From: a virus
Taxonomy: Duplodnaviria > Caudoviricetes
Length of the DNA: 64,000 bases
IMG/VR virus record: IMGVR_UViG_3300025707_000006
Coordinates: 43,481-107,480 of that record
Reading direction: 5' to 3' (one strand)
Below, one piece after another: positions 841 to 58,054 of the stretch. The notes below the pieces were generated by a model that had not been told where the DNA came from, searched no databases, and worked only from the letters and a program-made list of their open reading frames with translations. A program made the position numbers and the translations under genes. Every line of letters begins with the position of its first letter. Position 1 is the stretch's first letter.

Positions 841-1501
841 TTGGATAAGGCAAGGATTAATAGGGACACACCCTATACACCTACCTTATCTAGTATCAAG
901 AGGGGTGAATGAAAGTTGTCTAGTAGATTTCTACTCATGGCAACCCCACACCAATGTTCAATGTCCAAAGTTTAAAGCTAACTTTGGACATTCAGGTGAG
1001 CGTATTAAAGACTCACTCATAATCCCTATTACTTCCCCACGAGGGGAGATCTTAGGGATGGAAACACGCAGGATCAACGAGGACGGGTCTAAAAGAGTAC
1101 ATCAGTACCGAACCCTCAATGCTCAATGGAATCCTTATGCTTTAGGTGCAGAGGAAGGTTTTAAGGCATTGTGGGAACTAGGAGATTTATGGGTTGTTGA
1201 GGGGATCTTTGATAAGATCTCTCTCGATAAGGTCATACCTAGTTGTGATGCCTGTATCTCAACCTTGAGGGCTGGTATGGATGCTATCACAATGGACATG
1301 ATAGAGCGTTTCTACACACCTGCCTCAACCATATACATCTGTTATGATAATGATGAGACAGGTCAGAAGAAATCATATTGGCTTCAGCGTGAGATGAAGA
1401 AGCGAGGTATGAGGGCTGTTATCTGGAAGTATCGAGGGAAAGACCCTAACGATGTGTGGACACAAGGAGGAGATCAAGCTCTAAGGAGAATGTTCCTGTA
1501 A
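830..1501 (+). CDS. DNA primase, Toprim catalytic core (DnaG-like)
   Basis: YLVSRG, LIIPI, VVEGIFD, CYDNDETGQK and KDPND motifs; no Zn-binding or helicase domain. Confidence 0.85.
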   Translation: MRDDWIRQGLIGTHPIHLPYLVSRGVNESCLVDFYSWQPHTNVQCPKFKANFGHSGERIKDSLIIPITSPRGEILGMETRRINEDGSKRVHQYRTLNAQWNPYALGAEEGFKALWELGDLWVVEGIFDKISLDKVIPSCDACISTLRAGMDAITMDMIERFYTPASTIYICYDNDETGQKKSYWLQREMKKRGMRAVIWKYRGKDPNDVWTQGGDQALRRMFL

Positions 1502-2775
1502 TCTTCTTCAATATCTCTTACTTCTAAATCCATGATTGCGTAAGAAAGCCCATCAACACCTCTCTTACTTTCATTTAGATTTATAGTAAAGTGTTTAGTT
1601 CCTGTTGTGATGTCCTCATCTTCTTCATTCTCAAAATATTCAATAACACATTGAATGTCCAAACGAAAATCTTCTTCATCGAAGAAAATCTTATCCCTTT
1701 CGAGATAATAATCGGAAAGCTCATATACCTCTCTACCTAGTTCAGTGCTTATCCACCTATCCACAACCTTAATCAAATGTTTTAATGCTTTCCCACTTCT
1801 ATCTATTAAGTTAAGATTAATCGCCTTACGAGCGTTACCGTAGGATTGTTTTTCGAGTCTTGCGATCCTCATCTCAAGAGGATTAATGATTTCTGATGCT
1901 GATCTTCGGTTAGAGGTACTTTTCAGATGTTTTACCACTTCTTTACGATCATGCTTTCCATCTACACTCCCTACTTCAACCCCGACAGGTTTTGCATCGG
2001 GAGAGCTAAAGTAAATGTAAGCCAAAAAGTGTTCATCAACCATACCCTTCTCTTCACAAAAGTCATCATAGCATATTTCTTTCTTTTGACCCTTATCAAT
2101 CAAAAGCTCATAAAGACCCTGCTCGGATTTGATTTGCACAGCTTTGAGAATCTTTGGTCTGCTTTTGAAACCTTTGATAAATTTGGCTCTTTCAGCGGCT
2201 TTAATGACTTCTGTCTCCGTTAAACCAAAAGAGTCTTTTACCCATCTTTGAGAGAAGAAGTCTTTAACATCTTTAAAGTTAAATGCTTGTTTTTCAAGTC
2301 TAGCGATACGACCCTGTTTACGAAGCCTATCTCGCTCTTGGTTGACCATTTTTTGATGCTCCTCTACTTCTTTACGAGCACTCTCTTGACCTACACGATA
2401 AATAACTTGATCAACGACTCGTTTAATGAAGTTTCTTTCGCTCATCTTTGAGTCATTTGCACCACTCAGTTCAAAGTCTACTTGTCTAAAGTCTCTGTTT
2501 CCACCTGTGATCTTGTACTCAGCAGTATCTTTCCCTTCTCTTTTTAGAGAGACTTGGTACACCTCACCTTCAAATTTGAACTTCCCTGATAACCGATTGT
2601 CCTTATCCATTTTCACATCAGAATTGACTGCTCTGTTGTCTTTTAGTCCTTTTAAAAACCACCCATGTACCGTATCTAGGGGGTTTTTTTCAAAAAGTCC
2701 AAAGATTGCTTGTTTTTCAAGACGAGCAATCCTCATCTGAAGGTTATTAATAATTTCACTGGCAGATCTTCTCAT
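1474..2775 (-). CDS. tagged polyprotein with three RIARLEKQ leader copies (putative internal virion protein)
   Basis: ATG 2775 after GGAG; MRRSASEIINNLQMRIARLEKQA, internal GRIARLEKQA and RRSASEIINPLEMRIARLEKQS. Confidence 0.75.
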   Translation of the reverse strand: MRRSASEIINNLQMRIARLEKQAIFGLFEKNPLDTVHGWFLKGLKDNRAVNSDVKMDKDNRLSGKFKFEGEVYQVSLKREGKDTAEYKITGGNRDFRQVDFELSGANDSKMSERNFIKRVVDQVIYRVGQESARKEVEEHQKMVNQERDRLRKQGRIARLEKQAFNFKDVKDFFSQRWVKDSFGLTETEVIKAAERAKFIKGFKSRPKILKAVQIKSEQGLYELLIDKGQKKEICYDDFCEEKGMVDEHFLAYIYFSSPDAKPVGVEVGSVDGKHDRKEVVKHLKSTSNRRSASEIINPLEMRIARLEKQSYGNARKAINLNLIDRSGKALKHLIKVVDRWISTELGREVYELSDYYLERDKIFFDEEDFRLDIQCVIEYFENEEDEDITTGTKHFTINLNESKRGVDGLSYAIMDLEVRDIEEDYRNILLRA

Positions 2776-2841
2776 AATGGTTCTCCATTTGATTAAGGTT
2801 AGACTGATCACTTATGAGAACCTATAAATAAACTATTAAAG
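2707..2841 (-). repeat. promoter-RBS-leader cassette, copy 1
   Basis: CTTTAATAGTTTATTTATAGGTTCTCATAAGTGATCAGTCTAACCTTAATCAAATGGAGAACCATTATGAGAAGATCTGC; near-identical to copies ending at 8670 and 9155. Confidence 0.9.
2824..2838 (-). promoter_or_regulatory. class A (late-type) motif TAATAGTTTATTTAT
   Basis: Intergenic, ~50 nt upstream of ATG; recurs co-oriented upstream of many genes. Confidence 0.7.
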
Positions 2842-7939: not shown

Positions 7940-8284
7940 ATGAGTGAATGGGTCGTATATGTCATCCAGAGTCAGCAGATCAGACGCTCTGCTAAGACAG
8001 GTAAAGAACTACCTGGTTTCTTCTATGTAGGTTGCACCACAGATGTTAACCGTAGGCTGAGACAGCATCAGGGTTTCATCAAAGGAGGCGGGAAATACAC
8101 TGCAAAGCACCGACCTTGGAAGCTCATGTGTACTTATGGCACATACGCTAATAGATCAGAAGCCATGAAAGCTGAGATGGCTCTAAAGAAAAAGCGTGGT
8201 AAGGCTAGGCTCTATTGGACAGAGCAAGAGTCTAAATGGTGTCGAGGTCGTAAAGAAATAGGACTTAAAAACGACTGTATTTAG
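7940..8284 (+). CDS. GIY-YIG endonuclease (Slx1-like)
   Basis: VYVIQS...FYVGCTTDVNRRLRQHQG..KGGGKYT..HRPW; AMKAE. Confidence 0.9.
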   Translation: MSEWVVYVIQSQQIRRSAKTGKELPGFFYVGCTTDVNRRLRQHQGFIKGGGKYTAKHRPWKLMCTYGTYANRSEAMKAEMALKKKRGKARLYWTEQESKWCRGRKEIGLKNDCI

Positions 8285-8603
8285 CTATGTCTGAATCCAT
8301 CTGTTCATTCATCATCCCATGAGGCGGGTTTCCAATATCTAAAGCGTCACCCGTAGATGTTGTCATAAGAATATGATGATACTTTGAGTAGTTTATTTCT
8401 ACACCATTAGAAAGAGAGATAGAAACCATCTCTCGACCTGTAGGGTCCTTCCCTCTTTGCACATCAACAACATTTCTGTTTGATAGTTTTTGCTCGGCAA
8501 GATCGTGAACATAACGCAGATCTACGGCCTCACTAGCAAACCTTTCAAGTTTCGCAATCCTAGTCTCAAGGTTTCTAAGGATTTCTGATGCAGATCTTCT
8601 CAT
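8265..8603 (-). CDS. tagged hypothetical protein (RRSASE leader)
   Basis: MRRSASEILRNLETRIAKLERFAS. Confidence 0.8.
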   Translation of the reverse strand: MRRSASEILRNLETRIAKLERFASEAVDLRYVHDLAEQKLSNRNVVDVQRGKDPTGREMVSISLSNGVEINYSKYHHILMTTSTGDALDIGNPPHGMMNEQMDSDIAKYSRF

Positions 8604-8670
8604 AAGGGTTTCTCCATTTGATTAAGGTTAAGATGATCACTTAAGAGAACCTATAAATAAACTATTAAAG
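8535..8670 (-). repeat. promoter-RBS-leader cassette, copy 2
   Basis: CTTTAATAGTTTATTTATAGGTTCTCTTAAGTGATCATCTTAACCTTAATCAAATGGAGAAACCCTTATGAGAAGATCTGC. Confidence 0.9.
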
Positions 8671-8699: not shown

Positions 8700-9089
8700 T
8701 TAGAGCCTGCGAAGAACCCTCTTAGACTCCTTGAGGAAGTCTGCCTTAACAGAGTCAGAGTCTGGTCCAACCTCGACACGACCAATGGTCAGTCTACCCT
8801 GGTTTCCTTCAGACACATCAACTAAAATGAGATATCCATTCTTCAAGTCTTCTTCATACACGACATTAACATGATTCATATAGCCATTTGTCCACCTTAA
8901 CGCTCCTGTAGGCGAAGACTCAAGAGTATAACCTAACAATTTAGTTCCCGCTAACCTTCTCACAGATTGCATGGGGGACGAGGCGAGGCTGTGTCGGATG
9001 CGATAGAGGGGATCAGGTGTAGATTGTCTTTCAAGACGAGCGACCCTAGTCTCAAGGTTACGGATGATTTCTGATGCTGATCTTCTCAT
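8700..9089 (-). CDS. tagged hypothetical protein (RRSASE leader)
   Basis: MRRSASEIIRNLETRVARLERQS from ATG 9089 after GGAG. Confidence 0.8.
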   Translation of the reverse strand: MRRSASEIIRNLETRVARLERQSTPDPLYRIRHSLASSPMQSVRRLAGTKLLGYTLESSPTGALRWTNGYMNHVNVVYEEDLKNGYLILVDVSEGNQGRLTIGRVEVGPDSDSVKADFLKESKRVLRRL

Positions 9090-9155
9090 AGGAGTTCTCC
9101 ATTTTGTTAAGGTTAATGAGATCACTTAAGATCATTTATAAATAAACTATTAAAG
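9021..9155 (-). repeat. promoter-RBS-leader cassette, copy 3
   Basis: CTTTAATAGTTTATTTATAAATGATCTTAAGTGATCTCATTAACCTTAACAAAATGGAGAACTCCTATGAGAAGATCAGC. Confidence 0.9.
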
Positions 9156-18928: not shown

Positions 18929-19303
18929 TTAAAGTCGGTAAAACTTTTTAAACCCTCTCCAATCTTTGGGGTGCATCTCACTAAACATACTTGGGATCTT
19001 AGAAATCAAGATCCATTCCCATTCAGTATGCTCATGGTCTAAAACAGGTTCTATCTCTGTTTTACATACTCCGACATACATGGTGTAAATCCTGTCCTCA
19101 ACATGATCGACTACCTTGTATTGGTCGGGAGTTATACCAGTCTCTTCTTCAGTCTCCCTAAGAGCTGTCTGATAAGTCGTTTCATTTGGTTCGCCCTGTC
19201 CTCCTGGGAAGTCCCAATAACTCGACCATTTATCATATTTATAATGTGTTCTTTTCATTATGAGGGTCTTATTACCGCATAATAGCATTATTCCAGCACC
19301 CAT
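18929..19303 (-). CDS. Nudix hydrolase
   Basis: Nudix box GGQGEPNETTYQTALRETEEETG. Confidence 0.92.
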   Translation of the reverse strand: MGAGIMLLCGNKTLIMKRTHYKYDKWSSYWDFPGGQGEPNETTYQTALRETEEETGITPDQYKVVDHVEDRIYTMYVGVCKTEIEPVLDHEHTEWEWILISKIPSMFSEMHPKDWRGFKKFYRL

Positions 19304-20720: not shown

Positions 20721-21170
20721 ATGAGAAGATCCGCATCAGAAATCATCCGTAACCTTGAGTCTAGGATTGCTCGTCTTGAACGACAATCGGGTCGAGGATC
20801 AAATCGTCTTGAAAGACAAGCAAGACCAAATGAGAAAATAGAAAATGAAACATCAAAAACAATTCTCACTAAGAAGCAATGGGCAGGGATTGCAAAGACA
20901 CACGCCCCAAAACCTTTTGAGAATCCTCTTGGAGATCAAGAGGTGTATTATGACTATCGCAGAGGAGGTATAATCGTTGATGATCGTGATGAGCATGGTG
21001 ATGATGGAGAAATATTTCTAATCAAAGAGATTAAGGGGGGCGGGGCTGAGGGTGCATTTCAAGTCTATCAAGAGGTTTATCCAGATGCTAGACTGGGCCA
21101 AAATGGCTGGAATTTTGATGATATGAAGTATTTAGGGAAGACACTAGATCAACGAGCGAGGAGGGGATAA
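20721..21170 (+). CDS. tagged hypothetical protein (RRSASE leader, duplicated RLERQ)
   Basis: MRRSASEIIRNLESRIARLERQSGRGSNRLERQA. Confidence 0.8.
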   Translation: MRRSASEIIRNLESRIARLERQSGRGSNRLERQARPNEKIENETSKTILTKKQWAGIAKTHAPKPFENPLGDQEVYYDYRRGGIIVDDRDEHGDDGEIFLIKEIKGGGAEGAFQVYQEVYPDARLGQNGWNFDDMKYLGKTLDQRARRG

Positions 21171-23803: not shown

Positions 23804-24739
23804 TCAATGACCAAAGTCTGCTTGGTTCTCGATAAATACTTCTCTAATTTGAGTGATTTGAGAGGTCAAGACTTTGTAAGACACCGAACGAGCCGAAGCC
23901 CACTTCTTCTTACTCTCATACTCTGCATATCTAAGCTCAAGCCAAAGCGAGTAGTACATATCTACCTTCGCTTCACCGAAACGATCAAGTAAAAGAGATC
24001 TCATGTACGCATTAGTGGACTTTTCTTCAAGAGAATGATTTTCGTCCTCATGCACAAAGTAGTCTGGCTCTCCGACTGACACACCAGTATCTGCGTCAGT
24101 CTTGGAAACCACTTGAGCGATCTGCCAACCTTGCGACTCAAGATTCTGTATATGATGGACAGGAACATAATCTGTGTTCGACTCTTTAGAAGCGTATGCT
24201 TTGACTTTCGTAACCTCTGATTGAGTCCTCGCACCACGACTCCGTTGTAGAGCATCTGCACCCTCTTTGTACTTTTCACGCACTACATACTGCAAGAACC
24301 ACTCATAGACCACAGAGGGCTTGATTCTCTTGCCTTTATCAATCTCAGTTTTGAGCTGATTTTTCTTGATAAAGTGTTCAGATAGGAAGCTATGGAAGTA
24401 GCTTACGATCTGATCTTCGGGTAGAGTGAAACGCTTGTTGTAAGGGGTTCTTCTCTGAACCATCCCCAACACTCGTTCGTAGTTCTCACACTTAGCATTA
24501 TAAAGCCAATTTTCAGTCTCATTTCGCACCCTAACAGGTTTTTTTGGCTGTGAGTCTGATAAGATCATGTCAAAGTGATCATCTGCTGAAGTGTCGTAGA
24601 TCATATCGAAGTGATCATCTGCTGATGTATCGTAGATCATATCGAAGTGATCATCTGCTGATGTATCGTAGATCATATCGAAGTGGGCATCTGCACCACT
24701 CCTTATAGGGTAAGCTAAACCCTTAGTTATTCTATTCAT
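23804..24739 (-). CDS. divergent sigma70/ECF-like protein with N-terminal 12-aa repeats
   Basis: C-terminal LELRYAEYESKKKWASARSVSYKVLTSQITQIRE resembles the region 4 HTH; PEDQIVSYF...YEWFLQYVVRE resembles region 2. Confidence 0.5.
   Translation of the reverse strand: MNRITKGLAYPIRSGADAHFDMIYDTSADDHFDMIYDTSADDHFDMIYDTSADDHFDMILSDSQPKKPVRVRNETENWLYNAKCENYERVLGMVQRRTPYNKRFTLPEDQIVSYFHSFLSEHFIKKNQLKTEIDKGKRIKPSVVYEWFLQYVVREKYKEGADALQRSRGARTQSEVTKVKAYASKESNTDYVPVHHIQNLESQGWQIAQVVSKTDADTGVSVGEPDYFVHEDENHSLEEKSTNAYMRSLLLDRFGEAKVDMYYSLWLELRYAEYESKKKWASARSVSYKVLTSQITQIREVFIENQADFGH
24562..24694 (-). repeat. in-frame 36-bp tandem repeat (~3.7 copies; SADDHFDMIYDT)
   Basis: Unit agatcatatcgaagtgatcatctgctgatgtatcgt; no spacers. 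Confidence 0.95.
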
Positions 24740-27321: not shown

Positions 27322-28362
27322 ATGAGCGAAGACCTACAGATTTCTTATGCCTGTCCTCATTATCTTCGATATGAGAGGGTAGGACTACAAAACAGTATCT
27401 ACATTATACCCGCATCACCAATCAATGGTGAGGGTCTTGTAGTGATTAGACGAGATGGTGTCGTCCTTGAACCTCAAGGTAATTACCGAGAAGCGACTAT
27501 CACCACTCCTAATGTGTCTCCTTTTAGGGTGAGAAGTACCTCCAATGTGCTTACAATAACCACTACAGAGGGGTACTCAAACACAATCACCTTACCCTCG
27601 AAGATATACAAATCAAAGACCTTGATCTCCGAAATACAAAGCCAAATCGGAGCGATCATTGTTGAAGAGACTACATCAAAAGCGTTGAGGTTTTCTGATC
27701 GAAAATTAGGTATTGGGTTTACCCTCACAGGAAGCCTATTAAAAGCACTTGGTTTCAAGAAGCAAAAGCAAGTTATTAAAACGAAAAAGTCTACTCCTGC
27801 TTGGGGGTTAGTTTCACGACTCAACGGACATGATATACAGTTCAAGAGCAGATTAGAACCTGAAGGTTTACTAGAAATATCTTACACTACCGAAAAGCGA
27901 TACTGTAGAAGATGTGGTGGCACAGGGGTTGAAAACGACTTTAGATTCGGTACTGATGGAGACATTCAAAAGATACAAGACACTGATCTACTCTATCAGA
28001 ACATAGCCAAGACTCTTTTGACTGAGATCGGGTCGAACCCTTACCACGCTTGGTATGGATCAAACGCTAACCGACTCATAGGTAAAAAGAATAATGCTTC
28101 GGTTGGGGTCGCTTTAAGGATGAGTGTACAACAGGCACTAGATAAGTTGCAGAAAATCCAACAAGATCTCAAGAGGGTACAATACCTTAGCCAAGAAGAA
28201 AGATTAATGAGCGTTCAGTCTGTGGAAGTTTCTACACTCAATAACAATGCGACTGCATTATTGTGTAATGTGGTTGTTCGTAGTGGAGCAAATCGTCAAG
28301 TGAGCGTAAATATAGTCTTTGAAGTACCTGGTAGCATTTCATTAGATGGGAGTTTGACATGA
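27322..28362 (+). CDS. baseplate wedge protein with C-terminal gp25/GpW-like domain
   Basis: LLYQNIAKTLLTEIGSNPYHAWYGS; directly precedes baseplate J. Confidence 0.7.
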   Translation: MSEDLQISYACPHYLRYERVGLQNSIYIIPASPINGEGLVVIRRDGVVLEPQGNYREATITTPNVSPFRVRSTSNVLTITTTEGYSNTITLPSKIYKSKTLISEIQSQIGAIIVEETTSKALRFSDRKLGIGFTLTGSLLKALGFKKQKQVIKTKKSTPAWGLVSRLNGHDIQFKSRLEPEGLLEISYTTEKRYCRRCGGTGVENDFRFGTDGDIQKIQDTDLLYQNIAKTLLTEIGSNPYHAWYGSNANRLIGKKNNASVGVALRMSVQQALDKLQKIQQDLKRVQYLSQEERLMSVQSVEVSTLNNNATALLCNVVVRSGANRQVSVNIVFEVPGSISLDGSLT

Positions 28363-31300
28363 GCTATAGCTTAAAAATTGTAAAGCCAGATGGAGTTAGT
28401 TCCACTGTTTCAACAAGTTATTCTACAGATAAAGAAGAAGTATTCATTCATGGTCTTGTTGAGGGGTACGATCAAATCACAGTGTCATTCTTAGATGAAG
28501 TATTCACCTCCGTAGGACAAGAAGCAGACATCACAATTAGTAATGGGACTTGGGTATTCCCGAATCCAGACACGACACAAGAGGGGATAGACTTAAATCA
28601 AGGGGCTAACAGCTTCTTTATCACAGCAACAGATGGGTCAAACACTACCTCTTTAACACTCATCGTCATCTCTAGTCTTGACTCAAATACTGCTAAACCT
28701 CAGCCCCCTCTCAATATAAAATCCGAGAGAGCGGATGATAATGTAGTTCTTAGTTGGTTACATTCAGACTCTGAGATTATCTCTTATAATGTGTACGCTT
28801 CTACTGTAAGTGGAGGGGGTGATGGTTATCGACAGATCAACAAGATACCTATTGACCCGATTTCTTATGGGTTTAAGTCTGAGAAGGTTACCTCTGTAGT
28901 AGATTTCTCTAGTGATCTTAAAACAATCGAAGAAGACCCAAATGTCCTTACGATAAAAGCCTTACAGAACACCACATCAAGTGATATAGGTACACAAGAA
29001 ATTGCTGAGAGCATCAGTCGATTAAGAGTGTCAACAAATGTGTCTGCAATCGAGTTAGAAACAAAGGTGTCTTTCAAACATAATCGTAGTATACCAGACC
29101 AAGCGAATACAATAGATATAGGCGATTTTTCTTCTCTCAATGCAAACACACCTCTTTACTATGTCATTACAGCAGTCAAGGTCGTGGATAACCAATCGGT
29201 TGAGTCCACTTTTAGTGTTGAAGTTGGATCCGCACCGATTGACTTACAGATTGTCAATACAATCCTACCCAATGTGACTGATGCACAGATTACAGAGAGT
29301 ATGATCTCAGCTATTTATGATGCAGACTCCACAGCGAGTGTCCATGCTGGGTCTGCGATAAGAGACTTGTTTATAGACCCAGTAGTGTCAGAGATCTCTC
29401 GCATGAGAGTCCTCTTAGATTTCTGCTACAAAGCTACCAACTTTGTGTCTCTTAACGACATTGATGACCCAACAGGATTGGGTGAGTCCATCTTCGTATC
29501 TAACTCAAGTTATAAACAGCTCTTAAAAGAGGCTTACTTCCTTGATACCGACACACAGGTACAAAACCTTATCGACATCTGTTTTGATCGCCTAGCGTCT
29601 AATCTAGGCATTGTTAGGTTATCAGGTCAGGTGGCTAGAGGTGAAGCAACTTTCTTCTCAAGAAGTCTGCCTACTTTTGATCTGATCGTACCTATAGGAC
29701 AGATCCTCTCTAGTGGTGGTGTGAGATTTAGAACTCTTCAAGGGGGGACAATCACAGTTTCTGAAGCACCTAGCTTTTACAACCCAATCACACGCGGATA
29801 TGAGATCACCTTACCAATCCAAGCTGACACAGCAGGTCTTAGTGGGAATGTTACATCGGGTCAAATCACAACTGGTGCTCCTTTAGGGTTAAGTGTAATC
29901 AATAACTCATCTACATTTGGAGGTTCTACTAGAGAGACAAACCAAGAAATGATGACACGAGCAATGACTTACATATCTTCTGTAGATGTAGGCACAAGAG
30001 CTGGTTATGAGCGAGTGGCTAGAGAGTCAGCAGGTGTTTTAGGCTATGAGGTTATAGATGCTGACAACCCATATATGCTTCGAGATAACGATCAAGGGGG
30101 GAAGGTAGACATTTGGATTAGAGGTGAACTGTTGAGCCGAGTAACTGATGTATATGCTCCGTCCTATAGGTCAAGAAAAGACTCAAGGTTCATCCCTATA
30201 CAATCGGAGGGTGCATATAGGTTTCAAGCCTCAGATGCCACCTCAGAGAACCCTCTCTTTCAAATGATTGATCGAACTAATACCTTTGGACTTAAAAACC
30301 AAACCAATGGTGAGTTCTTCGACCTTACAGGAGCAACTATTTCTGAAGGTAAGATCCTTCGACTCAATACAGACATATCCCAACCCACATATCGCATGAC
30401 CGACATTATCTTGGGAGACTATAGAACTGATGTTACTAATAAAGTCGTGCTTGATCGACAACCTGTTCGACAAGTCATTTCTGTCCGTAAAGCAGATGGT
30501 ACTGATCTGACTTTCACCTTCTATAAAACCGAAGATCCTCTTGTGCAAGGACAGTCCTCAAAATCTCAAGACTATATCATCCTTGATAACGATGGATTAG
30601 AGAAGATCATCTCAATCACAGCCGAGCAACAAACCCTTAATGAACTCTACACTGAAACGCTATCAAATCGTGGGGTAGACATCACTACCATTGTAGTCAA
30701 AGACTCAAATGGTAATACTTTTGCAAGCCCATTGACCTCTGCAACGCCAGATTATGTTATCGAAGTTAATGGTGATCTGACAACGATTAAGAGGACTACT
30801 TCAAGTACAATCACATCGAGTCAAACAGTCCTTGTCGATTATGAATACCTAGAAAACATTACAGTAACCTATCAGACAAACCTAGTTGTATCTAACCTAC
30901 AACTAGAAGTTGATGAACAAAAACACATGGGTGCAGATGTTCTTATAAAAGAAGTTTCTCCTGTTCGAGTTAATGTAAAAGGTCTTGTCTACTTAGAACA
31001 AGGGACATCAGCTACTAGTGTTGACTCAATAATCAAAGCCTCTTTATTCAATCGCATAACGGAAACAACTCTTGGTGGGAGTCTTTACCCATCCGATTTC
31101 ATTCGGGAGATTGACTCTGTACGAGGTGTTTCTTATGTCTCTGTTCCTTTGACAGAGCTTTCACTGACTGAAGGAGATCAGATCCTTCGTGAAAAAGTGA
31201 ACCCAACAGTGCCTGTGGAAGTCACAGAGTTTACAAGCTCTAGTCATAAAGTATGGCTCATGGATGTTCAACTAGATCATGTACCTCAACAAAGTGGGGG

Positions 31301-31634
31301 GTCAAATGCTAGGGTGTTTTTAAATCGAAAAGAAATCGAAACGCTCAAGGTCGGACAAAGAGAAACAGCCTCAAACTGGATCGGTGAGAAAGGGAGCATC
31401 GTAGGTTTAGAGAAAGCCTCTGTTAACTCTAACGGAGTTCTCACAGAGATACCAAACTCCACTCGAAAACTTATGATCTCATTACCTTTGGGGGAAACTC
31501 CTTTAGGGTATGAGATTGAGGTCAACTACACTTGTGGTAATGGGACTGGAGTAGTAGGTGAGATCAGATTAAATAACTTTAGCTACTTTCAAGTGGGAGA
31601 TCTCAGCTTCACTTATGAAGAGGAGAGAAGATAA
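28359..31634 (+). CDS. baseplate J-like protein with N-terminal Ig/FN3-like domains
   Basis: GSAIRDLFIDP, FDRLASNLGIVR, ARGEATF, AGLSGNV..GQI and GGSTRETNQE motifs. Confidence 0.85.
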   Translation: MSYSLKIVKPDGVSSTVSTSYSTDKEEVFIHGLVEGYDQITVSFLDEVFTSVGQEADITISNGTWVFPNPDTTQEGIDLNQGANSFFITATDGSNTTSLTLIVISSLDSNTAKPQPPLNIKSERADDNVVLSWLHSDSEIISYNVYASTVSGGGDGYRQINKIPIDPISYGFKSEKVTSVVDFSSDLKTIEEDPNVLTIKALQNTTSSDIGTQEIAESISRLRVSTNVSAIELETKVSFKHNRSIPDQANTIDIGDFSSLNANTPLYYVITAVKVVDNQSVESTFSVEVGSAPIDLQIVNTILPNVTDAQITESMISAIYDADSTASVHAGSAIRDLFIDPVVSEISRMRVLLDFCYKATNFVSLNDIDDPTGLGESIFVSNSSYKQLLKEAYFLDTDTQVQNLIDICFDRLASNLGIVRLSGQVARGEATFFSRSLPTFDLIVPIGQILSSGGVRFRTLQGGTITVSEAPSFYNPITRGYEITLPIQADTAGLSGNVTSGQITTGAPLGLSVINNSSTFGGSTRETNQEMMTRAMTYISSVDVGTRAGYERVARESAGVLGYEVIDADNPYMLRDNDQGGKVDIWIRGELLSRVTDVYAPSYRSRKDSRFIPIQSEGAYRFQASDATSENPLFQMIDRTNTFGLKNQTNGEFFDLTGATISEGKILRLNTDISQPTYRMTDIILGDYRTDVTNKVVLDRQPVRQVISVRKADGTDLTFTFYKTEDPLVQGQSSKSQDYIILDNDGLEKIISITAEQQTLNELYTETLSNRGVDITTIVVKDSNGNTFASPLTSATPDYVIEVNGDLTTIKRTTSSTITSSQTVLVDYEYLENITVTYQTNLVVSNLQLEVDEQKHMGADVLIKEVSPVRVNVKGLVYLEQGTSATSVDSIIKASLFNRITETTLGGSLYPSDFIREIDSVRGVSYVSVPLTELSLTEGDQILREKVNPTVPVEVTEFTSSSHKVWLMDVQLDHVPQQSGGSNARVFLNRKEIETLKVGQRETASNWIGEKGSIVGLEKASVNSNGVLTEIPNSTRKLMISLPLGETPLGYEIEVNYTCGNGTGVVGEIRLNNFSYFQVGDLSFTYEEERR

Positions 31635-34600
31635 TGGTATATGATTTCGACCCACGCACAAATAGAGAAAACTTAAACTCAAAGTCCTACCCTAGACGAC
31701 TCCTAGAGGACATAATTACCAACAAAATCGTAGACTCCATGTCCTTCGGGACTGCCTCAAACTACCTCACTCGTAGCTATGGCCCGAACCATAGGGTTAT
31801 CTACGAGGGTGTAGGCCGACTCCTTGCAGGATTATTAGTAGACACCTTAGATAACCTAGAAGATGTTGAATACTCCCAACTAAGAGCTGAGTTTATTGCT
31901 ACTCGCCTCATGTACCTTGTGTTCCCCGATGAGGACTCTGTACCTGTCGGGGATACACATGAAGAGACTATCTCTTTTCTCCTACAAACCTATGAAGCTC
32001 TATTAAAAGGGGCGACTAAAAAATCTGTCGATGAAGTGTTGAATGACATCGCTGAAGGAAATGCCGTTGTACTTAGCAACATCGAGGGATATATCGCTAA
32101 CATCAAGTCCTCTATCCTCGCTACAACAGAATACAACACAGATGGGGTGTTTTCCAAACACAGACACTTTGCCTTCACTGATGAATCTGGACTAGGTTCT
32201 ACCAACAAGCCGATTGAATATAAATGGGGAGATGAACTTCATACACACGACATTATTGACGGAGTTATTCAGCCACACATAGATGCTGACGGAAACTCTC
32301 ACTCCCATGAGGTTTATCTTGGGATACCAGAAAACATCATAAGATTACAAACGAACTTACGCAAGGTTTTAAGGGTAACCAAACCCGCACATATTAAAAC
32401 AGGTGAGGTTTCCTCAGTCATTGATGAGGACATACCTATTCTCTCTAAAGGGAAAGGAGATGTGTTTAGCCCTATTCTCGGAATCGACCCTGCTCAAACA
32501 GATGCTCTGATAATCGAGGGCAACAAGATTGACGCAACACTACCATATTACAACCAAAACGCACAGTATGGGCTTGTTGGAGTCTCGCTAGGGTCTTTCT
32601 TCCAAGAAGAGATGAGGAAGGCTAGGGAGGGTGTTTACGAAGAATATTTCTACGGGTATGCGTCTGGTAATACCATTCGTGTATGGAGGACTAATGTCCA
32701 AGTAGCAGACAACCTCGTCCTCAGTGATGATGACTCCAACACAGCAGATCAAAAGTTTAGGGTCATAGAGGTCGAAAGTGGTATTAAACCAGTAGATGGC
32801 ATCTATCAGAAAATGACTGGTAGTGATGGAGTAGAATACACAACTAAAACAATACGGGATTTGAATCGTGGTGCGAGTTCTTCACTGAAACCCATAAATG
32901 TCGCTGATGTAGAGATCATTAATGGGAGTATGTACCCAATAGAGGAAAACGGTATAAGAGAGGGTCGGGCAGGTGATACACAATCCTTAAATGATGGTGA
33001 GCCTATCTTCCTAAAAGATAAAGTGTACTTCTGTGAGTTAAAATCTGACTTGGGTCAATACCTTTTGAGTTTTGATTCTGTTCGTGAACCTATGATGTCT
33101 GGTCATAGGGTAGGTCTTGTAGCGACTGTCATCACTGTAGATTCTAGGATACAACAAGAAGGGTTGATCAAGTTCAAAAACAACTCATCTCCTTGGAATG
33201 TTAGAGATGAATTAAAGTACGAGACAGTTACCTTCACTAACACTTTTGATGTGGCTAGATGGGGTGTAAACTACAACTACGCTATAAACCTACCCAACTT
33301 TATCGTGAAAGATATGCTCAAATCTATAGGCACACTGCCTGTGTCTATGAATGACATCACCATAAAAATAGACAAAGGAGCAGGGTTCGTAGATCCCGAT
33401 TACTCTTATTCTAACCTATTCTTAGAATCTATCAACTGGTATACATACTCAGATAAAGATGGGATCATGCGTATAAGTGATCGGACTTATACCACTGTGG
33501 GGGCTAATAACTATAATAACCCACTTATAAGTTCGGGACATAAAGTTTCAATCACATATCCCAAATCCAAATCGGAAATCAGACGCTTCAGAGAACTTAA
33601 TAGTCTTGAGATGACCCTCAATGCCACAAGACCAGCTCGTAAAGTCTCCGACTCTGGTAGAGGGTTATTAGGTCAAAACAGAGTCATTGGGACAACATCA
33701 CCAATCTCTTATGTACTTAATGAACCACAACCTGTCACCCCTTTCACACAAGAACAAAAGACTGCTACCTACTCTGCGGGTAGTTCCGACCTGCTCAATA
33801 CAAAAAATCAAAATCTATATGCAAACACAATCACAGACCCTTTAGTCTTTAATAGCACATACACCCTCAATAACTTCTCACTCAATCAAACAGCAACTCA
33901 AGATCAAGTCTTTAAGCCGTCTACGAAAACCATCACTACATCAAACCCTAAGATTTCTTTTTATCTCCTGGGATTTAGACCCTCGTACATCACCTCCGTG
34001 GTCGATAGTAGTGCTGTGTCTTATGCCTATACACTCAATCAAGATCATGTCTTAGTCAGTGGATTAACAAGTGAAAAAACACTGACCATTACTGGTATCT
34101 CTTCTAACCCATTCTCCTCTGATCTTGATTGGTACAAAGGAGAAAAGTTAGCAGAAGGTCAAGCGTTCTACAAACACACCTCCACTAATGAATTAGATGT
34201 CTTCTCGGAGTCTACTCCTGAAGAATACATGACGAACCCTCTAGGTCTTGCATACGACAAAAACGGTGTTGTATCCGATCAAATACGCTCTGTATACTCT
34301 ATGGAAGACACTAAAACATCGGGTATAGAGGGTGAACTAGACTTTTATGAGGACAAGGTTACAGGGTATGAGTTTAAGCAAGATGAAGACGGAAGGGATG
34401 GGTTTGCTAGTGAATATAATACGCAATGCACACAAGATGAAGTTCTTTACCCAGATCCGACTCTATATGTGTTAGGCCCAATATCCACATTAACAGGGGG
34501 TGTGCCTGTAAACACGATCCCCACATATCTCTTCTTTGGGTACTTTATGCTTATTGACCAAGATAGCAACAATGATATTGTATACTACCTCTCCATATAT

Positions 34601-42100: not shown

Positions 42101-45100
42101 ATTTGGGCTGATTGGGAAAATACTAATGTAGGGACTCAAACTTATACCCCAAGGTCATCTGGACAAGCGTTCTCTATTTATAGGTATGATGTAGAAGGGT
42201 ATAAAGTTTATCAAGAACTTGAGCTACTACCCATAGGTGGTGATGTTGTAAATGGTTACGCTTTAGAGTTATGCACAGGTTGGGATTGGGTAAAGAACAG
42301 TGATGATTCTGACGCAGGTGTTGGGTTATCTTTTAAGTATTCTCGATATGTACCTGTTTATCGCCCTGTAGAACCAAACCACACAAGAACAACACTTGAG
42401 ACTCATGCCGATGCAAAGTTCCTCGTAATCAAAGGTGTTGACTACTATGTGGAAATGCACCCTTCAATCCCTTATAATTGGAATACAAACACGAACCCCG
42501 CAGTAGGCGGACACGACCCGACAAACTTCATAAACTACACAGAGCCTAAAAATTCTATTGGAGATTTAGGTGGGGACGCTACTTCTGATTTGAGTCTGAT
42601 CTTTAGCCCAAGTCTGACAGATAAAACCACAGCCGCTACTGCATTAACTTCTTTGTACGACTTTATGGGTACTACAACAAATAATCATGGTGAATATGTA
42701 GGGCATGGGGTGTCTCCCATTGACGCGGCCTCAGCTAACGCTATTGTAAACCCTACAGTTGGGAACACATATCACTTAGCTAAACTATCTCTTAGTTCAC
42801 TCGCAGTATTCTCCATTACAACAAACCCTCAACACCCTCACCCTACGACAAGCGTAAGGGTGGACACTGGTGGGTTTGTCGCAGGTACTAGAGAGTTTGG
42901 TGATGTTATTGTTGAAGCGATACCTACAGGGCGTAGACAACTTCCAGAGTATGGAAACTATACGATGGATATTAGAGGGTATATCACCGTTAGTGGTATG
43001 GGGAATACTAGTGTTTTCATTTCGGATCAACTACAAGCAGTATCTACTATCTCAAGACTCCCTCTTGTTTCTCTTTTCACACCTAGAAAAGACACCCAAG
43101 AACGCTTCTTAGACGAATCTTATCGCATAGAACATAGCCTCGCTCACCTTTTCTTCATACAGGGCAATGACCCTGATTTTAACTATCAATTTGGCAACCA
43201 TCAAGACACTAGTGGTGTCACTCCAATCACAGGGAATACCGAGTTAAGAGATAACTTAATCGGCCCAGGCATCCCTAACTTCGGATCGGGTTATAATGGA
43301 GGCTATATTTCATTCCCTGTGAGAGATGAGTCAAATGTTTCTCCAGAAGGTTGGTTAGCTAACACAACTAACTTAAGATTGTATAGCTTTCATGGGTTCG
43401 CAGGATACTTACGAAACAGTTTACACATGAGAAGGATACAAATCACAAGCCCTCTTATTTTCTCTGACTGGTTAGAAGCACAAGTGAGTGGATTCCCTAA
43501 CATGACGAGAAATCACTTGTCGGGAGCTAAATATGGAACGCCTCCAAGAGGTGTCTTAATTTACCCTTATCAAGACTTTGATGGTAACACGATAAGTGCT
43601 TTTGGATATAACCTCAGTAATAGTGGTCAAGCCACAGTCAATCCTCTTGTTGATTCGGAGTCGGGATTCTATCTACCTAACTCTAATGCAGGTCTTTCGG
43701 CTTATGACGATGTAGCTAACAACATCGCAGGGAACTATGGCAATAATGGAACATGGCTTGATGACGATGCAGGAGGTGTGGGAGTTTCTACTGACCCTAT
43801 CCTAAGACACGCACAACCCACCTATTCTGGAGGTGGTTTTGTGGCATCTAATGATTCTCCCGATGTGGGCTACTTGAGAGCCTTCGATCTAAACTTTGGA
43901 AAGAGCGTAGAACGATCTCCCCACCTCCCTTATTGGGATACAGATTGGACAGAAACAACTGCAAGTGGAGAAGAAAAAGATCGACTCTCCACAAGTGCTA
44001 CACCTAAAGGTTTGATAGAATCAAAGGAATGGGAGAGAGTTAAGGGTGATGAATTTGCACCCATTAAGTTAAGGCTAGTAGGTGTTGATTGGGATATGAT
44101 CTCTTATGTCGATCCTCAGTTCCCAAATGCTAGAAGAGATGGCACAGTTTATACGATTGACAATAAACAACACCTCATGCGTAAGAGGGTCATGAGAGTC
44201 TTTGTAAAAGTACCAGGTCTAACCACATGGCTTGATGTTGGTGTAATGAACGGAGAAGTCGGTGAGTCTTATGTGCAGTATGCAGGAGACCCCACAGGCA
44301 CATTCGGTGTGATGAGTGAAGGGGGTGCAACCTCTGACAAAACACACCCAAGTCTTGATGGTGCAGGGTGTTGTGTTTCATACAAAGAAACATTCCTTGT
44401 TGAAGAAGGATTAGTCGCTCTTGACCTTGAACTTGATGTTGGTTTTGTACCTGCTTTTATGAGCGTAGGTGATGATACAGTATCTACTGACACCATAGCT
44501 TCTTCGGATAACTTCTTAGGGCAAGAAAAAGTTATTTATGTGAATAACTCTGACAAATTCTTTAGTGCGAGTAAATCTGATGACCTCGCTTATGGTAAAG
44601 GTGGCACAGAAGCACCTATCCTTGTCAAAGTTATCTTAGGTAATCCCGATTTCCCTAAGTATGAAGTCCACCCTGAAAATGCATTTGCTCTTGTAAATCG
44701 AGATGACTTAGCAGACCAAACAACTTTAATCGCTAATGTGTACGGAGGTGTGGGTACTAACGCTATATACGATATATGGCCTTCACCTAATAAGTCTTAT
44801 CGAGGTCATTCATTCCCACCCGATGATCGTGCTCCAACATGGTCGAGAAGAGGGCTGATGGGTATTGAAGTTCTTAGACCAGATGGATCAAACTTTGATC
44901 ATGACCTTGTAGTTGACAGACCTGACTTTGCAGATTTGTCCTTGTTTGGATCGCTAAAAGCAACCAAATCAGGAACTAGTGAAGATGATAGATCACATTA
45001 TATGGTTTATCGACAAGTTAGTCATTCGGCATCAGGGTATTTAAGAGGGGATACTGCATTAGAAGGTACGATAAAAACAAACAAACAAACATATACCTTT

Positions 45101-46019: not shown

Positions 46020-49000
46020 ATGGCTGATGATTTTAAGACCACAGTTAGTAGAACGCTAGATACGACCAATCGCCAATACACAAATGTAGTATGGCAAGCA
46101 GGTAAACCTCCTCTCGATAGTGAGCTTAACCTAGTAGGTCAACTCGCCACAGATAATCTCTCAAAGACTATTTCGGCAACTGCTCATAGTGGTATCCTAA
46201 TGAACCCTAGAACTGCCGACAGAGACTTTGAGTTTAATCCCCTATGGTCAAACATCTTAAAATCCAAGCCCCTAAAGGCTTTAGTCAATGGGTTGGTTTT
46301 AAACATTGAAGAGACTACCATTAACCTCTCTCCACCACCCACACAAGACAATCGAGTAGACTTTGTTTTCCTAGAGGTGTGGAAGACCATTATCTCTGCT
46401 AGCAATGCAATAGCTGATGCAGACCTTCTTAAGATCAAACCTACTACAACAACCGTTTATTCCAATGGCAATCTTGCGGGTAGTGGGCTAGAAGATGAGA
46501 TGGTAGACACCAATGTTGGATTTGAAACCACAAAGCGTGTACAGGTTCAGTATCGCTTTAGAGTAGTTGATAACATTGACATTTACTCTCACATCGAAGG
46601 TATGTCCAGCAACCTCGTTAAAGCTAAAGGCCCTTTAGATGCTGTTAGCACTGTGAGCTTCAATAACCAACACGCAAATGGAGATGCTGGTCTTTGGGTC
46701 GCTCACATGACAAGTGATGGATGTCCTCTTGGTCAACCTTGTGACCCTAATGTGCCAAACACAGCACTGAGCGATTTCTTAGCAGAGAACATCGTTTATG
46801 GTATCCCTATCTGTGCAATCACTCGAAGAAATGACCACGCTTATGTTGCGTCTGTAAACGCAGGCAATGCTAATCAGAATGGAGCGATGGATCGTAAGCC
46901 TTCATCTACCATGAGTACAGACGCAATTACTCTCCTACAAGCAACATTGACTAATGCTTTAGATGCTTCAATCACAGGTAATGTAACGATCACTAATGGT
47001 GTTGGTTCGGGTCTTGATGATGCTGATCTTTATGGTTCTGAAAGATACTTGGTGCTTGGTGAAGGTCTTAACAGAGAAATCATTAGAGTAAGTGGATTTG
47101 CAAACCCAAATCTTACGATTGTGGCTAGAGGTGAAGGTGGAACACAAGCTAAGTACCACTCAGCAGGAACAAATGTTGTTCTCTTTAACAACCGACCTGA
47201 TGGTAAATATGCTGATCAGATCCATGCCGAAGATCTATTCGATATGCGTCATGCTACCACTATCGGTGAGTGGGATTATCAGTCTCTACTTGAAAGCTCT
47301 CTCTCTGATCTCCTCTTCGGAAATCTAAAGACTGCCTACAAGCAGAACCAACAAAACAACACCACATCGGGAACGACCATAGAAGAAGTTTCTATGATCG
47401 ACAACCAAACCCCACCACAAACATACAATATGGATTGGCCTAATGGGTTTAGAGACACATGGTCTGATGCTTCTGTACCCCAAATGGGATTGACTATGTA
47501 TCTTAGTTTGCCGAGTGCAAGAGACTCTTTTGGGGTAACACAAACAAACCTCAATGTAGCCAACTCAACCTTTTGGTCTATCGGACCAAACTTATCTCCT
47601 AGTGCTTTCATTTATGATGGTCTTGTCATGAAGTCTGGCTCATGGATCAAAATAACACTTAATAGTGATCAGACAAACTTAGCTTATGGGGTCAATCAGA
47701 TTGTTGGTGCAAATACCTCCGAAGAGAGAGGTGTTCGCTTTATCGCACCTAAAGAAGTCAGAGATGCTTCAATAAAACGATCACCATTCACCATCGAAGA
47801 GGTAGGTGATAATCATGGTCAGTTATACTACCCGACCCTTGCATCTAGCTTTGAAAGACCATTTATCGTACTAGGTAAATCTCAGTACGATGCTACATTC
47901 ACCACATCTACTGCTGACAATGTGACAGATCAAAACTATCGTTATTTGTATCGACCAAATGCGATCAATCAGTCAAATGTTGTTGTTGATCAGCAGACTG
48001 GAGCTGGTAAAGCTACAGAACAAGTCGTTGCTGTCAGATTGGGTGCGAGTGGTGTTGATTTACCTCTCGCTGTGAGAAATATCGAATCCCTCGTGACAAA
48101 CAATGGGTATGACACGAGTGGAGATCACTCTAGTTTATATGCTGTCATCTATGGTGACCCAGCCGCTCAACAGAACAATGGTGTATTCAAAGTAATAGAC
48201 ATATTAAACGATGACTTAGACACACCTAATGCTATTTACTATAAATCAACCGACACTACTGTTGGTTGGGCTCCAACATCCAAAGTAGGTTGGCTTATAC
48301 TCAAGCCTATCGACAACATTAACAGAACCCCTGATCTAATTACCGAAAAAATATTGAAGATTGAGTTCAGAACGCAAGACCTCGCTAACAAAGACGATGA
48401 GGTGATGATCGCCATTACAGAATCTGTAGACCACGCCATTGCCAACTCTACTCTAGGTAAACTCTCTATCACAAGCGAGTTCCAACTTGGTGTCTCTGTC
48501 CTCTACCCCTCTGCAACAGGTGGCATTGCTAATGTAGCTGAGGACATTCATAAGATCGGTTTAGTACCAGATGTCTCCACAGGCGAGTTCCTTAACAACT
48601 CGAAGTCTGTTTTACATGGTGCAGATTTCTCTAACTTGCCCCTTATAGGGAATGAGATAGACCTACCAACGAAGAACCATGTCTCTCTTTGGAATAGGCT
48701 ACCCTCATCAAACCTGCCAATCGGTATAGCACAGTCTACTCAGATGGGTGGTCGTATCATCAATGAAGAAGCTGATCGTGAGGCTGAAGCGTTTACAGAT
48801 GAAAACAGTAAGACTGTCGTTCTTAGACCTTTCCAAAACAAGACTGTCATCATCAATAAAGCGATTACGAAGAACCTCGAAGCAAACAATGTTACTCTAC
48901 CTCTAGTTCCAGAACATTGGAACAGCACAACTATTGATGTAGATCTTGAAACATCAGAAATGTTCCTTGCAACTAAGAATGCCGCTTTCGTATTGCCCGA

Positions 49001-57559: not shown

Positions 57560-58054
57560 TTGAAAAGATTAGCCTCAGAAATCATAAGTGAGTTAGAAAC
57601 TCGTATTGCTCGCCTTGAAAAACAAGCTACTTCAAGTCGCAGAGCCTCAAGTCGCAGAGCCTCAAGTCGATACGCAGACCCATTTTTGGCTGAACTACAA
57701 TCTGACATTGATGACGGTATGCACATGGCAAATGAGTTTCAAGCAGGGAGAAATCCTGATGGTCAAGGGTGGTCGAATGAAACTCAAAAAGATTACAACA
57801 GCCCACCTGCTCCTAAGAACCAAGCAGATTGCTACACCGAAGACAACCTTGAAGGTCTCGGTAAGCCTGGTGATGGGGTGACTTGTTACCGACTCCACCA
57901 TGAATATGGAAAAGCAAACTCTGGAAAACCAGGATCATCAGCAAGACAAAAGTACAATAAAAAGTATCGTGAGAACTTCATGGACTCACCAAGTATCCAA
58001 AGAAAAACCTGTCCAAAACCTGGTGGTGGGAGTGGTCCTTGCAACAGAGGATAA
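57560..58054 (+). CDS. tagged protein (leader variant plus SSRRA repeats)
   Basis: TTG start after AAAGGAG; KRLASEIISELETRIARLEKQATSSRRASSRRASSRYA. Confidence 0.75.
   Translation: MKRLASEIISELETRIARLEKQATSSRRASSRRASSRYADPFLAELQSDIDDGMHMANEFQAGRNPDGQGWSNETQKDYNSPPAPKNQADCYTEDNLEGLGKPGDGVTCYRLHHEYGKANSGKPGSSARQKYNKKYRENFMDSPSIQRKTCPKPGGGSGPCNRG
57632..57669 (+). repeat. 15-bp tandem repeat (SSRRA, ~2.5 copies)
   Basis: tcaagtcgcagagcc repeated. Confidence 0.9.

Follow-up and report, generated by a model that had tools for sequence, protein, structure and literature searches.

A 433-residue open reading frame (ORF) on the minus strand of a 64,000-nucleotide stretch of viral DNA (positions 43,481 to 107,480 of the IMG/VR virus record IMGVR_UViG_3300025707_000006; hereafter, the window) opens with a short leader peptide and contains two further copies of it, one complete and one half. 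Why should an N-terminal leader recur in the middle of a protein? A sequence-only reading of the window had offered two answers, namely, that three tagged genes were fused or that a polyprotein is cut into three products in the head. As judged from its homologs, the ORF consists of three tagged genes fused in frame, with modules exchanged at the leader copies. The overall explanation, which we hold with even confidence, is a fusion of three cargo genes whose leader acts as a removable tag for addressing and processing and whose internal copies double as cleavage sites. Beyond this ORF, the analysis brought to light a large family of cargo genes with such leaders in uncultured huge phages of marine origin, whose multi-cargo fusions keep the tag at their joints.

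Architecture and origin of the triple fusion

The ORF occupies positions 1474 to 2775 of the window (stop codon at 1474 to 1476) within a stop-to-stop frame of 1474 to 2811; its ATG at 2775 is preceded by GGAG 8 nucleotides upstream. Its parts, all on the minus strand, are arranged as leader-A-half leader-B-leader-C. The N-terminal leader (residues 1 to 23, positions 2707 to 2775) shows every invariant position of the leader family except for E13Q. It is followed by module A (residues 24 to 154, positions 2314 to 2706), a basic segment of 131 residues with an isoelectric point (pI) of 9.3, and by the half leader (residues 155 to 164, positions 2284 to 2313), whose 10 residues comprise the last heptad and K-Q-A. 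Module B (residues 165 to 288, positions 1912 to 2283; 124 residues, pI 8.5) leads to the full internal leader (residues 289 to 311, positions 1843 to 1911), in which ATG has been replaced by AAC and thus Met by Asn, and the acidic module C (residues 312 to 433, positions 1477 to 1842; 122 residues, pI 4.6) completes the protein. A leader profile built from 11 leader copies was run against the 107-kb record translated in six frames (1,596 ORFs). Because the N-terminal leader, the full internal leader, and the half leader reached 52.4, 50.6, and 12.9 bits (the last with an independent E value of 0.005) among all these ORFs, the copies are not due to chance. The three modules are mutually dissimilar (BLASTP, E > 1 for each pair). 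The sequence-only reading had placed the leader copies at the same coordinates throughout and had seen three dissimilar segments between them, and both observations were borne out. A recent internal duplication of the leader was rejected, since the N-terminal and the full internal copies differ at 20 of 69 nucleotides. Likewise, an internal translation start at the full internal copy was rejected: its ATG is now AAC, neither a promoter nor a ribosome-binding site was found upstream of it, and the DNA before it does not resemble the 5′ region conserved in leader genes.

Each module was also found on its own behind a leader. P0010 (167 residues) consists of the leader and A alone (80% identity), with P0020 (156 residues) as a second stand-alone case of leader and A, while P0013 (159 residues, on 28 contigs) combines the leader with B alone (72% identity) and P0014 (145 residues) combines it with C alone (69% identity). 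The first of the two earlier answers, a fusion of three tagged genes, is supported by these stand-alone homologs of all three segments. The residues following the internal copies are those that follow the native leaders of B in P0013 and of C in P0014; going by this identity, each internal copy is the native leader of the module behind it, B or C. In other proteins, the modules are combined differently. A is followed by second modules other than B in P0002, P0003, P0005, and P0006; in P0002 and P0003 (98 to 99% identical in A), the leader, A, and the half leader precede two other modules, and the same half leader links A to three different modules in proteins that are 96 to 99% identical in A. 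B stands directly behind a full N-terminal leader in P0004, P0011, P0012, P0015, and P0016 as well, and in the first three of these it is followed by other modules. P0007 begins with a C-like module, to which a partial leader and another module are attached, and C itself is distantly related (E values of 1e-3 to 8e-5) to a module of P0002 and P0019, here termed C′. The locus L009 encodes leader-A-half leader-C′ in the same downstream context: it matches the window at 96% DNA identity over a stretch that begins at the promoter and ends with the half leader's last codon, continues with an unrelated 310 nucleotides encoding a C′-type module, and matches the window again (86%) from 45 nucleotides before the stop codon into the primase gene. 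Taken together, the single-module tagged homologs and the joining of A elsewhere at the same half leader establish, at the level of gene comparison, the in-frame fusion and the shuffling. The modules were thus encountered separately and in other combinations, not solely within a full-length protein folding as one interdependent domain.

Structure prediction for the 433-residue ORF was executed with AlphaFold2 from the single sequence and yielded a predicted local distance difference test (pLDDT) value of 39.3, which is unusable for domain contacts; helix was predicted at all three leader copies, with pLDDT below 65. A global alignment of the module-shuffled homologs misplaced C-type proteins and was left out of the folding. 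A search of the ESM Atlas with modules C and A gave no usable match. No Pfam family was matched by the ORF (at E ≤ 0.01) or by four other leader proteins, and in PHROGs only two tiny families responded, both matching just the leader motif. Neither the ORF nor a 25-residue leader query had a tblastn match among 50,697 phage records, and phmmer returned 10 hits only, close relatives throughout, from 1.84 billion representatives.

Repeats of the leader and its 5′ region within the genome are points at which contig graphs branch, with depth peaks and unitig ends falling at 1859 to 1909, 2267 to 2331, and 2675 to 2830. Such features would speak for an assembly chimera at repeated leaders or for a decaying pseudogene. 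However, two contigs from independent runs not flagged as a possible source of the record span both internal copies: a 9,425-nucleotide contig from a seawater run covers positions 1400 to 2744 with one difference, and a 906-nucleotide contig from another run covers 1426 to 2331 with none. Contigs from independent assemblies therefore bridge both junctions, by which an assembly chimera is ruled out; the divergence of the two full leader copies noted above argues against it as well, as does the occurrence of the same 433-residue protein on 4 contigs (identical-protein cluster of 9 members). With the frame open across 433 codons, a pseudogene fares no better, and we regard either artifact or decay as exceedingly improbable. 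The triple-fusion stretch was found in 20 marine or seawater runs from 13 studies (4 rows are without a study) dated 2012 to 2020, and 9 of these runs may be the source sample; no RNA run is among the sequencing runs listed with the stretch. In two of four seawater runs examined, a joint from 1502 to 2285, fitting a shorter A-C′ allele, was present alongside A-B-C, with depths of 4.9 versus 11.2 in one run and 16 versus 11 in the other. We take this joint to be the A-C′ form from its two sides, not from the letters between them. Its presence suggests a standing polymorphism in cargo content at this locus.

The leader family and its putative expression signals

The leader family comprises otherwise unrelated small proteins (cargo of approximately 40 to 350 residues) that open with the same 23-residue leader, made up of two to three coiled-coil-like heptads and a subsequent K/R-Q-A/S. 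Its core is formed by two heptads of the type I-x-x-L-E-x-R, and hydrophobic residues are placed at positions 8/9, 12, 16, and 19. Positions 1 to 20 are conserved, and L12, R15, L19, and E20 do not vary in any of the 74 unique leaders. K or R follows at position 21 and Q, S, or E at position 22; at position 23, 66 of the 74 carry A, S, or T, and position 24 is often S, G, or A; conservation is nil from position 25 on, so that the similarity is limited to approximately 24 residues and stops sharply at positions 23 to 24. Differences between leader copies amount to 0.45 at third codon positions versus 0.18 at positions 1 and 2, and 1,254 codon pairs included 413 synonymous versus 258 nonsynonymous differing pairs. 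As the copies differ mainly at synonymous sites, the codon comparison shows that the constraint acts on the peptide.

A profile search assigned the leader or part of it to 13 ORFs of the 107-kb record. In related genomes, 31 matches were obtained in G001, which is complete with 375,691 bp (32 ORFs in a separate scan), 12 in G002, and 11 in G003. In IMG/VR, 282 pattern matches yielded 144 confirmed leader stretches; the 80 best, located on 78 loci, were kept. No description of the leader family was found in print; exact motif strings occur in unrelated papers only, one six-residue string being part of the c-Jun zipper. A leader can also stand inside proteins of phages other than this one: the G001 protein encoded at 209749 to 210483 and a protein of locus L077 have a common N-terminal module (58% identity over 120 residues), a Met-less leader after it, and then differing cargos. 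From this pair it appears that an internal leader can persist through substantial divergence and mark a swap point.

Upstream of the 433-residue ORF, on the minus strand, lies a promoter-like 13-mer (2823 to 2835), which together with a conserved 5′ leader RNA region containing GGAG spans positions 2776 to 2835. At up to two mismatches, the 13-mer occurs 13 times in the window, compared to 3.05 expected occurrences, and none of 100 shuffles reached 13. It is found approximately 50 nucleotides upstream of leader genes, of the gp25-like baseplate gene at 27322 to 28362, and of other genes, and from its presence at both leader and baseplate genes we infer late or structural coregulation. Some of the leader genes have in common even their entire 5′ untranslated region (approximately 45 nucleotides), nearly base for base (window 2776 to 2835, 8604 to 8664, and 9090 to 9149; record 19065 to 19127 and 24302 to 24325); these regions are either recent copies or a regulatory RNA element.

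Proposed processing and destination of the tagged proteins

In the explanation that we favor, stop codons and intergenic DNA were deleted, leaving at the joints the last 10 residues of the native leader of B and the complete, though Met-less, native leader of C. Leader DNA also serves as the crossover point for cargo exchange between genes and between phages, and up to this point the gene comparisons bear the explanation out. The leader itself would be a removable address and processing tag, comparable to the capsid-targeting sequence of T-even internal proteins, that brings late-made cargo to the assembling particle and is cut off just after its conserved block by a phage protease. Each internal copy would double as a cleavage site, and one translation product would give rise to up to three cargo proteins. 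T-even internal proteins are described as an injected anti-defense set that varies greatly among related phages and whose sole common part is an N-terminal packaging leader (PMC12373910, PMC3012670). For SPN3US and phiKZ, a prohead protease is reported to remove N-terminal propeptides of 20 to 254 residues, in some cases at several sites (PMC10052503). On the analogy with SPN3US and the T-even phages, each leader copy would be cut after the conserved block, resulting in three products. Cleavage of the 433-residue ORF in this manner is plausible because leader conservation stops sharply at positions 23 to 24, because a Met-less internal leader is conserved between diverged phages, because leader genes and a baseplate gene have the promoter in common, and because two candidate enzymes are encoded, a C39 leader-peptidase-like protein beside leader genes and a head maturation protease. 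The analogy and the promoter motif common to the baseplate gene likewise point to the head as the putative location of the products.

The first candidate enzyme is a stand-alone C39-like peptidase of 348 residues, encoded beside three leader genes outside the window (L011:12950-13996, i.e., record 32950 to 33996, minus strand). It matches Pfam Peptidase_C39_2 (PF13529) at 26 bits (cutoff, 24) and, weakly, the related Peptidase_C39, and the Pfam scan revealed no ABC transporter domain in it. Its 494 homologs display a highly conserved N-terminal domain and a variable, modular C-terminal half of nontransporter type; Q14, C20, and H103 are invariant across 37 aligned sequences, and the N-terminal 176 residues are 93% identical in G001. 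The structural model (pLDDT, 82.6) found its best Foldseek matches in PCAT1, LahT150 (template modeling [TM] score, 0.81), and ComA (TM score, 0.84), whereas phmmer gave no match to PDB sequences at E ≤ 1. The peptidase is present on 80 IMG/VR loci, with contigs of up to 618,736 bp. A complex prediction for the peptidase domain with a 40-residue leader stretch scored 0.00, which is no evidence either way. The first five residues of the peptidase are those of the leader start, and the same promoter-like motif is positioned 50 nucleotides upstream of its gene. A near-identical C-terminal tail, R-V-A-[RS]-S-Y-L-N-(L)-R-G, is carried by the record's peptidase (L011:12950-12997) and by a 344-residue protein of G001 (L095:17108-17150) encoded two genes upstream of the head protease, and a motif S-R-[IV]-A-[RK]-V-x-L-E-R-K-K-W occurs at module joints of peptidase homologs and in the record's ORF at 31061 to 32947. 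The tail motif and its relatives may be a second kind of tag.

The second candidate is the head maturation protease, which might remove the leader inside the prohead, as in T4, phiKZ, and SPN3US, while the C39-like peptidase has an unrelated role. We consider this possible, though on the doubtful side. In the accounts cited, it is the sole mechanism demonstrated for leader-tagged phage proteins (PMC3012670, PMC12373910, PMC10052503). G001 encodes such a protease (phrog_18299, E = 5e-14) as well as a portal and a major head protein, and between the genes for protease and major head protein an acidic 513-residue protein is encoded in scaffold position. Of 26 matches to R-[IV]-A-R-L in G001, 25 fall into leader ORFs, and the remaining one, compared to 0.36 expected in non-leader ORFs, falls into this scaffold-position protein; in addition, conservation within the leader family ends just past the invariant Glu. 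However, the five-residue match was noticed post hoc, and the leader profile scored the scaffold-position protein at a nonsignificant -0.7 bits, for which reason the match is only a lead. A head maturation protease is, moreover, present in every tailed phage and hence does not discriminate. The Pfam families of T4 gp21 and gp23 had no match in G000 to G003, but the controls were silent too. The same scaffold-position protein (L095:10555-12096) contains an EF-hand calcium-binding motif above the Pfam cutoff, and a LAGLIDADG homing-endonuclease-like gene (L095:7474-8385) directly follows the major head protein gene. For the processing enzyme, we lean slightly to the stand-alone C39 peptidase, with the head maturation protease nearly as likely.

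A number of findings weigh against the explanation that we favor. Cleavage and head location rest on analogy. The full internal leader has Pro at position 11, present in none of the 74 unique family leaders and possibly a sign of relaxed constraint, and the residues at position 24 after the three copies (I, F, and Y) include no small one. Proteins with several copies are a minority, namely, 1 of 77 distinct leader ORFs in the IMG/VR loci with two copies and 4 of 32 leader ORFs in G001 with an internal copy; another 6 of the 77 have a leader more than 40 residues into the open frame (2 of these Met-less). As regards the link to the C39 peptidase, the leader lacks Gly-Gly (or Gly-Ala or Gly-Ser) before the putative cut, the defining trait of C39 substrates; this leader lies within 1.5 kb at only 4 of the 80 peptidase loci; G002, which is 73% complete, has 12 leader copies and no peptidase match; and the more distant huge phages scanned for leader families were peptidase-bearing ones only. 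Nor is the association exclusive, given that T-even phages are not known to encode a C39 peptidase alongside their leader families.

A real fusion might also stay uncut, its internal leaders being recombination scars, coiled-coil linkers, or docking helices in one three-domain polypeptide carried by the N-terminal or any other leader copy. The triple fusion is known only at 99 to 100% identity and is therefore evolutionarily young, and the twice-repeated heptad would suit a binding helix that needs no removal; one leader with one cargo is the rule (70 of the 77 ORFs), and the half copy has a mere 10 residues. Yet half and partial copies recur at module joints of diverged lineages (P0006, P0007, P0008, and G001 191206 to 191919), and the G001/L077 pair has kept its Met-less leader while the flanking module has fallen to only 58% identity. 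The atypical Pro11, too, counts for an uncut protein, but it occupies a variable position, and the full internal copy otherwise retains the invariant and near-invariant residues apart from the lost Met. On balance, we hold an uncut protein to be rather unlikely, if still to be reckoned with. A destination other than the capsid appears quite improbable, whether the leader were an export signal that works with a transporter of the host or the phage once the C39 enzyme has cut, as with bacteriocins, or a tag for some other late assembly inside the cell. Cellular C39 peptidases are described as acting in the export of leader-bearing peptides (PMC6363468), and the label "double-glycine peptidase" is given to some of the phage enzyme's homologs by the Joint Genome Institute (JGI). 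The phage enzyme itself, however, is devoid of a transporter domain, with C-terminal parts in its homologs that are variable and of another kind; cargos of up to approximately 350 residues are far above bacteriocin size, and the promoter is common to a baseplate gene.

Related systems, distant leaders, and neighboring genes

Among known systems, the T-even internal proteins (Ip1 to Ip3 and relatives) resemble the present family in their short N-terminal leader before unrelated small proteins, found here on 13 ORFs of the record and 32 of G001, and in their rapid turnover. Recombination at conserved leader and promoter sequences is said to have been proposed for the T-even ip loci by Repoila et al. 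in 1994. In contrast to the T-even case, the leader described here has 23 residues and a heptad-like pattern (the likeness to the T4 leader is one of organization, not of sequence comparison), approximately 31 scattered genes per genome replace a handful, leader copies stand inside proteins at module joints, and the system is known from genes alone. The phiKZ and SPN3US phages are likewise jumbo myophages with many head proteins, but their propeptides are not one sequence across dozens of unrelated proteins, and the account cited above describes no internal tag repeats. Polyvalent proteins of phages and conjugative elements also place several unrelated modules in one polypeptide; the prediction for them is that they enter along with the DNA and that a protease then splits the modules apart (Iyer et al. 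2017; PMC5512222). As portrayed there, they are large, with 2 to 15 recognizable, conflict-related enzymatic domains and usually a zincin-like peptidase of their own, whereas the 433-residue ORF has no Pfam domain and no embedded peptidase and carries repeated tags at its joints.

The C39 systems of PCAT1, LahT150, and ComA are similar in that a coencoded enzyme has the C39 fold with invariant Gln, Cys, and His and in that one conserved leader precedes many variable cores, as with up to 30 prochlorosins made via one leader type. An N-terminal leader of approximately 15 to 30 residues with spaced hydrophobic residues is common to both. LahT150 is reported to need just the last 13 to 14 or so leader residues, bound as a helix in a hydrophobic groove (PMC6363468). 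The present system differs in that the leader ends in K/R-Q-A/S without Gly-Gly, the substrates would be folded proteins rather than peptides, and the peptidase is a stand-alone enzyme whose pairing with the leader is putative. If it does act on whole proteins, C39 peptidases would gain a new function.

Other leaders were found in more distant peptidase-bearing genomes. G007 (peptidase 89% identical) contains 18 weaker matches to the leader profile, G006 (68%) has a shorter related leader on 10 ORFs, G008 (55%) has a different leader on 7 ORFs, and LR745208.1 (49%) has a different leader on 10 ORFs, once 350 residues inside a 594-residue frame. A search with the leader profile gave no match in G004 and G005. 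Besides its main leader family, each of G006 and G008 seems to have another, distinct one at the N-terminus of four to five ORFs (G006 149828 to 152386; G008 47282 to 48061, 98000 to 99199, and 269065 to 271236). A tentative generalization, which we think more apt to fail than to hold, is a broad clade of huge phages (contigs of up to 619 kb) in which a stand-alone C39 peptidase matures dozens of proteins per genome that have a lineage-specific leader in common, the leader doubling as cargo-shuffling joint and polyprotein cut site. If true, the bacteriocin-style logic of "one leader, many cores," as in RiPPs (peptides made on the ribosome and modified after their translation), would be applied to folded phage cargo. 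Should the leader be an address tag, it would mark approximately 30 proteins per genome that are likely loaded into the particle and able to reach the host with the DNA, and such candidates could be listed from sequence only in uncultured ocean phages; their T-even counterparts turned out to be specific inhibitors of host defenses. Crossovers in the tag would explain the reshuffling of the repertoire, and a portable tag, possibly with a matching protease, would be at hand for loading foreign proteins into large capsids.

The window represents the right-hand 64 kb of the 107,480-bp record, which is estimated by CheckV to be 34% complete. The gene content of the record (a family-A DNA polymerase, a Toprim primase, baseplate J and gp25-like proteins, helicases, and multiple paralogs resembling DNA methyltransferases) marks it as part of the genome of a jumbo myophage, whose sequence turns up in marine and seawater metagenomes. 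Among deposited records, the nearest is a 485-kb "uncultured phage" that lacks annotation and whose polymerase is 45% identical; no cultured relative was found. Further leader-tagged genes of the window, recognized by the leader profile, are located at 8265 to 8603 (minus strand; 112 residues), at 8700 to 9089 (minus strand; 129 residues from its ATG), at 20721 to 21170 (plus strand; 149 residues, the leader being followed by another short repeat, R-L-E-R-Q-A), and at 57560 to 58054 (plus strand; diverged leader and TTG start). One of the 13 leader ORFs of the record is a cargo-less remnant of the tag, in which the conserved 5′ region leads into a broken leader and then a stop; it is located on the minus strand at L011:4206-4301 (record 24206 to 24301), just downstream of a 347-residue gene whose internal leader keeps both Met and GGAG. 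At L010:7487-16286, four paralogous proteins of approximately 400 residues with DNA methyltransferase-like PHROG matches are encoded in a row that is broken by a 687-residue protein with a QueC-like match. Finally, Pfam DUF481, a family of bacterial outer membrane proteins and an unusual one to find in a phage, is matched by a 260-residue protein (L011:7689-8471) along its entire length (E = 3.5e-11).

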